Origin: a phage
Strand: one strand, 5' to 3'
Length of the DNA stretch: 64,000 nucleotides
Sequence record: PZ445498.1
Shown: piece after piece, positions 56,951 through 58,729 of the stretch
Position numbering within the stretch: the first letter of the stretch is position 1
How the letters are laid out: every line of letters starts with the position of its first letter
Notes under the pieces: generated by a model
Database searches by the model: none
Seen by the model: only the letters and a program-made list of their open reading frames with translations
Told to the model about the DNA's origin: nothing
Translations under genes and position numbers: made by a program

Positions 56951-57304
56951 ATGTTAATTATACTATTATTTGTCATATTCTTTCTAAAACATTTTATGGC
57001 CGATTATCCACTCCAAACACCATATATGCTAAGAAAGACGCATAAAATAGGGTGGAAACTTCCATTATTAACCCATTCGCTAGTACATGCTGGATTAACA
57101 TTTGCAATTCTAATCCTATTCACATCACCAGGAATGTCTATAGCTTTAGCTATTATGGAATTAATTCTACACTTTATTATAGATTATTGGAAAGCACAAC
57201 GCTGTAAATACGCTATAAGCGATGCTAAGTTTTGGATAGCTTTAGGATTTGATCAGTTACTACATTATCTGACATACGCCCTAATAATCTTGATTATAAT
57301 CTAA
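56951..57304 (+). CDS. integral membrane protein (hypothetical)
   Basis: 117 aa with 3-4 hydrophobic helices. Confidence 0.45.
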   Translation: MLIILLFVIFFLKHFMADYPLQTPYMLRKTHKIGWKLPLLTHSLVHAGLTFAILILFTSPGMSIALAIMELILHFIIDYWKAQRCKYAISDAKFWIALGFDQLLHYLTYALIILIII

Positions 57305-57310
57305 TTCAAA

Positions 57311-57335
57311 TAGCCCTTCGGGGCTATTATATTTA
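57311..57335 (+). terminator. intrinsic terminator
   Basis: AGCCC-TTCG-GGGCT hairpin followed by ATTATATTT. Confidence 0.6.
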
Positions 57336-57343
57336 AATTTCAT

Positions 57344-57372
57344 TTGCTTACTGAGTGAAATTCAAATATAAT
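57344..57372 (+). promoter_or_regulatory. early promoter
   Basis: TTGCTT-N17-TATAAT. Confidence 0.65.
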
Positions 57373-57402
57373 ATACTTCTAATTTGACAGAAGGATTTAA
57401 TA

Positions 57403-57981
57403 ATGACAGCCATAGTAGCATTTAAATATAAAGATAAAGTATACTTAGCTGGTGATCGTATGGGTTCTAATGGCTATACGAAACTGCTGGTTAAAAATCC
57501 GAAAGTATTCAAAATCTCTGATGATTTGTACTTCGGATACACTAGTTCCTTCTACATGGGACAATTACTAGAGCATAGCTTTACTGTACCACCACGTTTA
57601 GCAGATATTTCTGATGATAAATATTTATACACGGAAATAGTACCTAAATTACGTGATATGTTTAACCAGAAAGATTTTGGCGAAAAGAAAAATGAAAAAT
57701 ATGCTGAACCTAATCTGGGACAATTTATTATGCTCTACAAAGGAAGAATCTTTATTTTCCAATCTAATGCTTCTATTCTAGAAGTTGAATATGCCGGTGT
57801 AGGCTGTGGAGGAGAAGATGTACTTTCCAGTATTCGTACAGGTTTAGCTATTGCGGATTGTCGAGCCACAGATTTAGATGTAGATGATATATTTGAAATC
57901 ATTGATCTGGCTTTTACGCATTGTGCAGATTATATGTGTGGTGTATCTTCTCAACATGATGTTTTAGTAATTGGAGAATAA
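57403..57981 (+). CDS. HslV/proteasome-beta-like (Ntn-hydrolase) peptidase homolog
   Basis: 192 aa; N-terminal MTAIVAFKYKDKVYLAGDRMGSNG parallels HslV [20 protein letters not shown] (Thr right after Met); later GVGCGG parallels HslV GSGG. Confidence 0.5.
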   Translation: MTAIVAFKYKDKVYLAGDRMGSNGYTKLLVKNPKVFKISDDLYFGYTSSFYMGQLLEHSFTVPPRLADISDDKYLYTEIVPKLRDMFNQKDFGEKKNEKYAEPNLGQFIMLYKGRIFIFQSNASILEVEYAGVGCGGEDVLSSIRTGLAIADCRATDLDVDDIFEIIDLAFTHCADYMCGVSSQHDVLVIGE

Positions 57982-57983
57982 AT

Positions 57984-58253
57984 ATGTCTATTCTTTTATC
58001 TGCTCTAGAAGCAAAACAAAATACTATTGCTAGCATTAAAAAGGAAGTAATTGACCTAGAATCACTTATTGCCGTAGAGATTGACAAAGCTATTAAAGAT
58101 AAAGAATTTAATTGTCACATCCAGGGATTAACTGAATACTCAGAAAACGCTAGAAATAGCGTCATGCAAAAACTTAGCAAACTAGGTTATGTTGTGGAAG
58201 CTAAGTATGAGCAACGTGAAGGTTTTTGGCTTGAAATTGATTGGAGCAAATAA
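57984..58253 (+). CDS. hypothetical protein
   Basis: 89-aa ORF. Confidence 0.4.
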   Translation: MSILLSALEAKQNTIASIKKEVIDLESLIAVEIDKAIKDKEFNCHIQGLTEYSENARNSVMQKLSKLGYVVEAKYEQREGFWLEIDWSK

Positions 58254-58729
58254 TGTCGGTTTTCCACATATATACAGATGGTGCATGTAAAGGCAATCCT
58301 GGTTTAGGTGCGTGGGGATTCGTTGTCTATAATGATAATGATGATCGTATTGGCTCTAAATCTGGCTTCAGCCCTAAAACTACTAATAACGAAATGGAAC
58401 TTACTGCAATTGTAGAAGTTCTTCGTTGGTCTACTAAGAAAGATAATCGTCCAGTAATTATCTACACTGATTCTGCTTACTGCAAAAATGGTATGGAAAG
58501 CTGGATGTGGTCTTGGCAGAAGAAAGGCTGGAAGAAGGGAGATGGTGAAACTCCTCTTAATCTAGAACTCTGGCAAGAAGCATTTAAACTAACTCAACAG
58601 TATATTAACTTCCATGATACCAATCCAACCTTTGTTAAGGTTAAAGGTCACTCAGGTATTCGTGGTAATGAAGAAGTTGATGCTCTATGCAATACTGTAA
58701 TTACTGAGCAAGAACTTGCTGAGATGTAA
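58241..58729 (+). CDS. rnh: ribonuclease H (RNase HI-like)
   Basis: 162 aa; YTDGACKGNPGLGAWGFV and downstream acidic catalytic residues. Confidence 0.8.
   Translation: MEQIMSVFHIYTDGACKGNPGLGAWGFVVYNDNDDRIGSKSGFSPKTTNNEMELTAIVEVLRWSTKKDNRPVIIYTDSAYCKNGMESWMWSWQKKGWKKGDGETPLNLELWQEAFKLTQQYINFHDTNPTFVKVKGHSGIRGNEEVDALCNTVITEQELAEM

Follow-up and report, generated by a model that had tools for sequence, protein, structure and literature searches.

A predicted proteasome-type threonine peptidase in an accessory gene slot of a T5-like phage

The peptidase gene, its fold and its active site

The stretch of DNA analyzed here (hereafter the window: 64,000 nucleotides of phage DNA, sequence record PZ445498.1, one strand, 5' to 3') carries the gene of a proteasome-beta/HslV-type peptidase within the order nrdA-nrdB-frd-thy-membrane protein-peptidase-orf89-rnh (Table 1). 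Over the roughly 3.7 kb around this gene, identity is 99.9% to Escherichia phage vB_EcoS_Ace and 99.2-99.5% to the remaining listed phages of Salmonella and Escherichia, all of the genus Epseptimavirus (EPS7-like, Demerecviridae, T5-like). An identical protein is public as ACB97546.1 of phage EPS7, under the names 'peptidase HslV family' or 'ATP-dependent protease', and other records call it 'proteasome subunit-like protein', 'protease' or 'threonine-type endopeptidase'. The identification of the peptidase is already public through RefSeq and PHROG annotation, and the description of the family dates from 2021, so that coming upon the gene in a genome scan adds nothing new. Here we document the fold of its product, the active site, the selection acting on it, its promoter, the absence of a partner and its accessory status.

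Table 1. Features of the peptidase locus, in window coordinates (aa, amino acids; nt, nucleotides).
Feature	Position	Strand	Description
Peptidase coding sequence	57403..57981	+	192 aa; ATG start, stop codon included; proteasome-beta/HslV-type threonine peptidase
Thr2 codon	57406-57408		Predicted nucleophile after Met removal
Asp18 codon	57454-57456		Key residue
Lys34 codon	57502-57504		Key residue
Gly45 codon	57535-57537		Predicted oxyanion-hole equivalent
Cys135 codon	57805-57807		Predicted Ser129/Ser124 equivalent
Shine-Dalgarno AAGGA	57391..57395	+	7 nt 5' of the ATG, read from the sequence; a ribosome-binding site is annotated at the equivalent place in phage Sepoy
T5-type early promoter	57344..57372	+	-35 TTGCTT (57344-57349), N17, -10 TATAAT (57367-57372)
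Hairpin	57309..57328	+	AUAGCCCU-UCGG-GGGCUAU, then a U-rich tract; fold -12.2 kcal/mol, z=-3.5
Upstream accessory gene	56951..57304	+	Multi-pass membrane protein, 117 aa; PHROG 2470 (some records have 'DUF3307'); located between thy and hairpin
orf89	57984..58253	+	89 aa; function-unassigned family PHROG 13270; starts 2 nt past the peptidase stop
rnh	58241..58729	+	RNase H; last gene of the peptidase-orf89-rnh promoter unit; in T5, P27 drives rnh directly

There are zero in-frame start codons 5' of the peptidase ATG, and the product therefore starts with Met-Thr; its N-terminus reads MTAIVAFKYKDKVYLAGDRMGSNG, and the motif GVGCGG occupies residues 132-137. The protein matches the Pfam Proteasome profile (PF00227; E=1.2e-9, 38.5 bits against a gathering score of 22.4), with residues 2-189 on profile positions 5-188/189, as well as PHROG 1040 'peptidase HslV family' (E=1.9e-21). 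In an AlphaFold model (predicted local distance difference test, pLDDT, 89.7; predicted template modeling score, pTM, 0.87), it adopts the alpha-beta-beta-alpha N-terminal nucleophile (Ntn) hydrolase fold of proteasome beta subunits, with helices at residues 50-59, 71-89 (H2), 137-153 and 160-177, a last strand at 185-190 and no H5. Both the profile search and the structure prediction bear out an earlier reading of this DNA, made from the letters alone (the sequence-only reading), which had proposed a proteasome/HslV-like Ntn-hydrolase at this position. A search of the Protein Data Bank (PDB) with a profile of 18 homologs matched Thermotoga maritima HslV (E=4.9e-6), the mycobacterial 20S beta subunit and BPH (the beta-proteobacteria proteasome homologue); the single-sequence search with the peptidase gave weak matches only. 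Among NCBIfam models, only sub-threshold matches were obtained, to 20S_bact_beta and the archaeal beta subunit; the NCBIfam HslV model was not matched, and that collection holds no model for this family. PADLOC returned zero matches. The family is large: an exhaustive profile search retrieved 6,704 cluster representatives (clustering at 50% identity) at E<=1e-3 and 836 at E<=1e-30, as opposed to only 19 proteins found by a word-indexed homolog search.

The predicted active site is conserved throughout. Among 167 retrieved relatives (representatives at most 50% identical to one another), 160 start with MT, and in an alignment of the query with 166 of them (P0016, described below, was left out) Thr2, Asp18, Lys34, Gly45, Gly106 and Gly134 are 100% conserved, followed by Ser49, Gly136 and Gln54 at 95% or more. 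In precursor numbering, Thr2, Asp18, Lys34 and Gly45 pair with the residues of HslV that correspond to the Thr/Asp17/Lys33/Gly47 set, and the conservation of Thr2 agrees with the earlier proposal that the Thr immediately after the initiator Met is the candidate Ntn nucleophile. Position 135, which is aligned with the serine of the G-S-G motif of E. coli and T. maritima HslV, is Cys in 62% and Ser in 31% of the family; Cys135 in place of Ser129/Ser124 is a conservative substitution, and alternation of Cys and Ser is the pattern that would be expected of a residue with the Ser129/Ser124 role beside the nucleophile. The ratio of nonsynonymous to synonymous substitution rates (dN/dS) is 0.058 and 0.031 relative to two diverged orthologues (L092 and L093, respectively), which indicates strong purifying selection.

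Relation to HslV, HslU and other proteasome homologs

Profile-profile alignment (hhalign) relates the peptidase to E. coli HslV with 96.7% probability (E=3.2e-10, 20% identity). It pairs M1-D18 of the phage protein with M1-D18 of HslV, Lys34 with the catalytic Lys, and G134-C135-G136 with G-S-G; the two parallels that had been noticed by eye, between the N-termini (for which the HslV letters quoted match E. coli K-12 HslV) and between GVGCGG and the GSGG loop of HslV, are thus recovered by the alignment. A BLASTP comparison of the same two proteins is not significant (E=0.34), so that the kinship is seen by profile comparison only, and tblastn of the host HslV on the window gave a best E of 8. 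The non-significant pairwise comparison therefore marks the peptidase as an ancient relative of HslV, not as a captured host gene. Of the sequence-only description as an HslV/proteasome-like homolog, the proteasome/HslV-type Ntn fold stands, but the protein is neither HslV proper nor an HslV orthologue and belongs to a separate family instead.

Proteasome homologs have been split into many groups, of which group I (HslV, BPH, AAH, CPH, PPH, RPC and DPH) is bacterial and phage-borne, with AAH, CPH and PPH found in phages (Fuchs, Alva & Lupas, 2021; PMC8665760). By the criteria of that study (PMC8665760), the peptidase has the compact group I architecture, with H1-H4, no insertions, no C-terminal S12/H5 and no propeptide, and we assign it to the proteasome-beta type (MEROPS T1 / Pfam PF00227) as a member of a compact group I proteasome-homolog family. 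The signature of this family, G[YF]T[STG]SF[RY][ML]GQ, was found at 391 genomic loci and 365 viral loci. The best 80 of the 391 genomic loci belong mostly to Streptomyces, Azospirillum, Mesorhizobium, Devosia, Polyangiaceae and Paraburkholderia, with a few Firmicutes; cellular members of the family come mainly from Streptomyces, alpha-proteobacteria and Myxococcota, and cellular relatives have 169-214 amino acids, plus one outlier of 325. More distant relatives, at 30-56% identity, are encoded by phages of Enterobacter, Aeromonas and Vibrio, by jumbo phages of E. coli and Salmonella, and by Geobacillus virus E3. The family best fits the AAH of Fuchs et al. (2021). PPH, which comprises about 140 amino acids and lacks helix H2 (PMC8665760), was ruled out as its identity, the peptidase having 192 amino acids with H2 at residues 71-89. 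Some 'short' matches over residues 1-136 resembled PPH at first sight. They are in fact complete domains that continue into C-terminal extensions, or genes that were split in calling, and P0049 probably represents a fragment.

The family also includes longer and duplicated forms. C-terminal extensions of 115-210 residues, opening with highly acidic linkers, were observed in P0031, P0036, P0041, P0047, P0061, P0074 and P0096, and a further extended member of 388 amino acids is encoded by Pseudoalteromonas phage J2-1 (L090:2501-3667). They recall the 'RPC' class of Fuchs et al. and may serve in recruitment or regulation. In the metagenomic P0016 (123 amino acids), the N-terminal portion of the peptidase (~105 residues, with 61% identity to the window protein across the matched half) is fused to a SEC-C zinc-binding motif (PF02810); as a truncated chimera, P0016 cannot form the full fold. 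Two adjacent proteasome-like genes are present in Aeromonas phage 4L372D (gp163 and gp162; L172:3001-4454), at L006:6001-7455 and around 8001-9400 of L094-L098, where an orthologue of the window protein (about 183 amino acids, 42% identity) is paired with a more HslV-like paralog of about 295 amino acids that has an acidic C-terminal extension. Such a tandem gene pair could give rise to a two-subunit particle. In the window, no second paralog was found (best tblastn E=1.2).

Neither HslU nor any other dedicated partner accompanies the peptidase gene. As the sequence-only reading had stated, no HslU-like ATPase is visible in the window (E. coli HslU by tblastn: no match, best E=7.4), nor did the flanks of 170 related loci, 2.06 Mb in all, yield an HslU-like match. 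Among the matches listed for HslU in a phage collection, none was in a complete T5-like genome; those homologs belonged to Erwinia and Salmonella jumbo phages or to host contamination. Two records of 2-3 kb labeled 'Salmonella phage S.Kent 1-2-1' (OR851161.1 and OR851086.1) carry host hslU at 96-97% identity and are most likely host DNA contamination, and such matches are therefore not to be taken as phage-encoded HslU. We also clustered the flanking open reading frames (ORFs) of 80 cellular and 80 viral loci. No conserved neighbour family beyond genus-level synteny was found at the cellular loci, and none was present in more than 13 of the viral loci, where the commonest neighbours were PhoH (10) and genes for HK97-type heads and packaging: prohead protease S78 (13), portal (11 plus 7), capsid (11), TerL (10) and HNH (7). 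There is thus no dedicated partner gene. A PhoH-like ATPase was considered as an obligate partner, since it lies near the gene in several phages (0-5 kb upstream, at L097:5110-5895, L090:1685-2473, L091:966-1752, L006:4288-5073, L008:1-558 and L001:4364-5116), and was rejected because it does so at only 10 of 80 viral loci; its proximity probably reflects the shared synteny of a nucleotide-metabolism module and not partnership. In phage Sepoy, a close relative, the gene of the anaerobic ribonucleotide reductase, nrdD, is annotated as a two-piece join (L001:2137-4011), with two Sir2-like genes close by (L001:1-1381). A different setting is seen among the viral loci L100-L171 (e.g. L140, L156, L162 and L143), where in many smaller, probably temperate, high-GC phage contigs the family gene lies 1-4 kb upstream of an HNH/terminase/portal/S78/capsid module, unlike the early nucleotide-metabolism region of T5-like phages.

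Promoter, transcription unit and accessory slot

The peptidase gene has an early promoter of its own, as had been noticed from the letters, where it was called strong. The motif TTGCTN-N17-TATAAT occurs at 14 sites in the window compared with 0.26 expected, always with a spacer of 17 nt, and the copy in front of the peptidase aligns with the annotated T5 'putative early promoter T5P27'. A generic sigma-70 scan did not call this promoter, whose -35 element matches TTGACA at 3/6 positions, and a consensus terminator scan did not call the hairpin that precedes it; we set these negatives of the generic scans aside in favor of the phage-specific motif count, the T5P27 alignment and the hairpin fold. 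The hairpin is the probable terminator of the thy/membrane-protein unit. It is kept in T5 and Stitch and shows compensatory stem changes in a distant T5-like contig (L008). Across the window, the 14 sites span positions 26802-63826, with one site on the + strand at 26.8 kb, sites on the - strand between 37.5 and 48.1 kb, and sites on the + strand from 50.2 kb on, a strand layout that suggests divergent early transcription units.

Beyond the hairpin and promoter, the gene content varies between related phages. Positions 57296-57380 of the window align with L002:1496-1610 (T5), L003:1150-1255 (Stitch) and L008:5900-6010, and the similarity stops just past the -10 element, beyond which the cargo differs: T5 has thy-P27-rnh and no peptidase, Stitch (Epseptimavirus) has an unrelated ORF of 84 amino acids in the slot, and L008 has a 50%-identical peptidase orthologue in the equivalent slot, plus an HNH gene. 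Comparison of these sequences identifies the site of the hairpin-promoter cassette as a variable accessory-gene slot. A peptidase of more than 90% identity is present in 126 phage records, relative to 444 records that match the surrounding region; the BASEL phages IrmaTschudi and TrudiRoth are among the carriers. The peptidase gene is accessory; it lies outside the T5-like core genome and is dispensable within the lineage.

The gene of the 117-amino-acid membrane protein represents a further accessory insertion: T5, Stitch and L008 all lack it, and L008 has the peptidase without it. On the downstream side, orf89 is probably co-transcribed with the peptidase; Stitch has orf89 without the peptidase, and the linkage is therefore not obligate. 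For rnh there are two candidate starts, the TTG at 58241 of the mechanically called ORF, which overlaps orf89, and the ATG at 58253 (corresponding to the 477-nt rnh of RefSeq relatives), which overlaps the orf89 stop.

Proposed function and comparison with known systems

We consider it reasonably likely that the gene encodes an active, early, ATPase-independent and self-compartmentalising threonine peptidase that serves the phage as an accessory fitness gene, and this is our best explanation overall. Host RNA polymerase would transcribe the peptidase early from the P27 orthologue, as the first gene of the peptidase-orf89-rnh unit. HslV is known to lose the Met that precedes its Thr to methionine aminopeptidase; in the phage protein, the host enzyme would likewise strip Met1 and expose the Thr as N-terminal nucleophile, with no propeptide involved. 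Asp18 and Lys34 would complete the triad, Gly45 would provide the oxyanion hole, and Cys135 would replace Ser129. By analogy with HslV and BPH, the subunits would probably form stacked rings that enclose the active sites, and the particle would most likely work in the infected cell without a dedicated unfoldase, cleaving peptides as well as proteins that are unfolded or only loosely folded. Independence from an ATPase is suggested by the lack of a conserved partner, by the abundance of the family in Streptomyces, which belongs to a phylum without HslV (no HslV is given for Actinobacteria in Table 1 of PMC8665760), and by a loop after helix 2 that is about 9 residues longer than that of HslV, since short pore loops have been linked to control by an unfoldase, and long ones, as in BPH, to the lack of such control (PMC8665760). 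In the peptidase, this loop has 16 residues and a net charge of 0; the family median is 13 residues and a net charge of -1.

Several points weigh against this explanation. The loop argument is indirect, as the loop is neutral and not acidic as in BPH. Isolated HslV is nearly inactive without HslU, and a stand-alone homolog therefore need not be constitutively active. To our knowledge, Cys is rarely seen at the Ser129 position of T1 peptidases that have been characterised. The assignment to AAH follows from distribution, length and architecture. Finally, no experimental studies of phage-encoded proteasome homologs were found in the literature, in which one related report (PMC12345140) concerns host hslV expression only.

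Other functions have to be weighed against this one. It is doubtful that the protein instead has only one or a few defined targets among host or phage proteins, as a sequence-specific protease or connectase-like transpeptidase, and would, for example, inactivate a defence or stress protein of the host at an early stage of infection; no connectase-type insertion is present. Also unlikely, and slightly more so, is that the phage peptidase docks on host HslU, replacing or competing with host HslV and redirecting ATP-dependent degradation to the benefit of the phage. The protein is a remote HslV homolog, both E. coli and Salmonella hosts have HslU, and the host is the sole available source of an unfoldase given that the phage has no ATPase partner. 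The residues of E. coli HslV that form the pocket for the HslU tail (Phe54, Phe57, Gln114 and Lys80; PMC6429459) give a mixed picture when mapped by hhalign, with low alignment confidence in this region: Phe54 corresponds to a conserved Phe50 and Lys80 to Arg84, whereas an invariant Gly53 stands in place of Phe57 and a variable Glu127 in place of Gln114. The low identity, the non-significant BLASTP comparison, the unmatched NCBIfam HslV model and the longer loop after helix 2 also speak against docking, and with the family so abundant in Streptomyces, of a phylum without HslV (Table 1 of PMC8665760), dependence on HslU cannot be a family trait.

More ambitious, and in our view improbable, is a role as an early dedicated host-takeover or counter-defence protease, either as a stand-alone ring that would destroy specific host proteins or as a substitute core that would capture host HslU, with a hetero-oligomeric 'phage proteasome' in the phages with tandem paralogs (Aeromonas Plateaulakevirus, L006). 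If true, such a role would make this the first viral proteasome-type protease with a defined function in infection; so far, the catalogue of viral proteases of this type (PPH, AAH and CPH in phages) is one of sequences.

It is very improbable that the protein is a catalytically inactive scaffold or the decaying remnant of a protease gene. The replacement of the canonical Ser129/Ser124 by Cys and the dispensability of the gene in T5 and Stitch could be taken as signs of lost activity, but Thr2, Asp18, Lys34 and Gly45 are invariant, the Cys/Ser alternation at 135 is family-wide, and the ORF is intact with promoter and ribosome-binding site. The conservation of the catalytic positions together with strong purifying selection (dN/dS 0.03-0.06) therefore makes the repurposed scaffold, an alternative that the sequence-only reading had raised, unlikely. 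A recent capture of a host hslV copy, as the host-like N-terminal motif might suggest, is scarcely credible in light of the BLASTP and tblastn values, which refute it, and of the closest relatives being other phage proteins.

An active stand-alone peptidase thus remains our preferred reading. Its study would profit from an easily manipulated E. coli/Salmonella phage, natural presence/absence variants (EPS7-like phages versus T5 and Stitch) and a well-understood host HslUV, and the system therefore offers a convenient entry both to what a phage gains from such a peptidase and to whether compact proteasome homologs work without an unfoldase.

Compared with known systems, the peptidase differs from HslV (ClpQ), to which it is about 20% identical, in lacking an hslU partner gene, in having Cys instead of Ser124, and in the motif GYTSSF(R/Y)MGQ, which has a 4-residue deletion relative to 'GFAGGTADAF' of HslV. 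From the 20S proteasome beta subunits of archaea, actinobacteria and eukaryotes it is set apart by the absence of a propeptide, of an alpha-subunit partner and of a C-terminal H5, and by Cys at the Ser129 position. Identity to BPH (PDB 5OVS/5OVT/5OVU) is 13-20%, and host range and distribution differ; BPH forms a heptameric double ring with a long, highly acidic pore loop, whereas the loop of the peptidase has no net charge. With PPH, it shares being a phage-borne group I proteasome homolog. The closest likeness is to AAH, which is likewise a compact subunit of about 180-190 amino acids with helices H1-H4, no propeptide, no C-terminal H5 and the Thr1/Asp17/Lys33/Gly47 set, and which occurs in phages, Actinobacteria, alpha-proteobacteria, Firmicutes and others.
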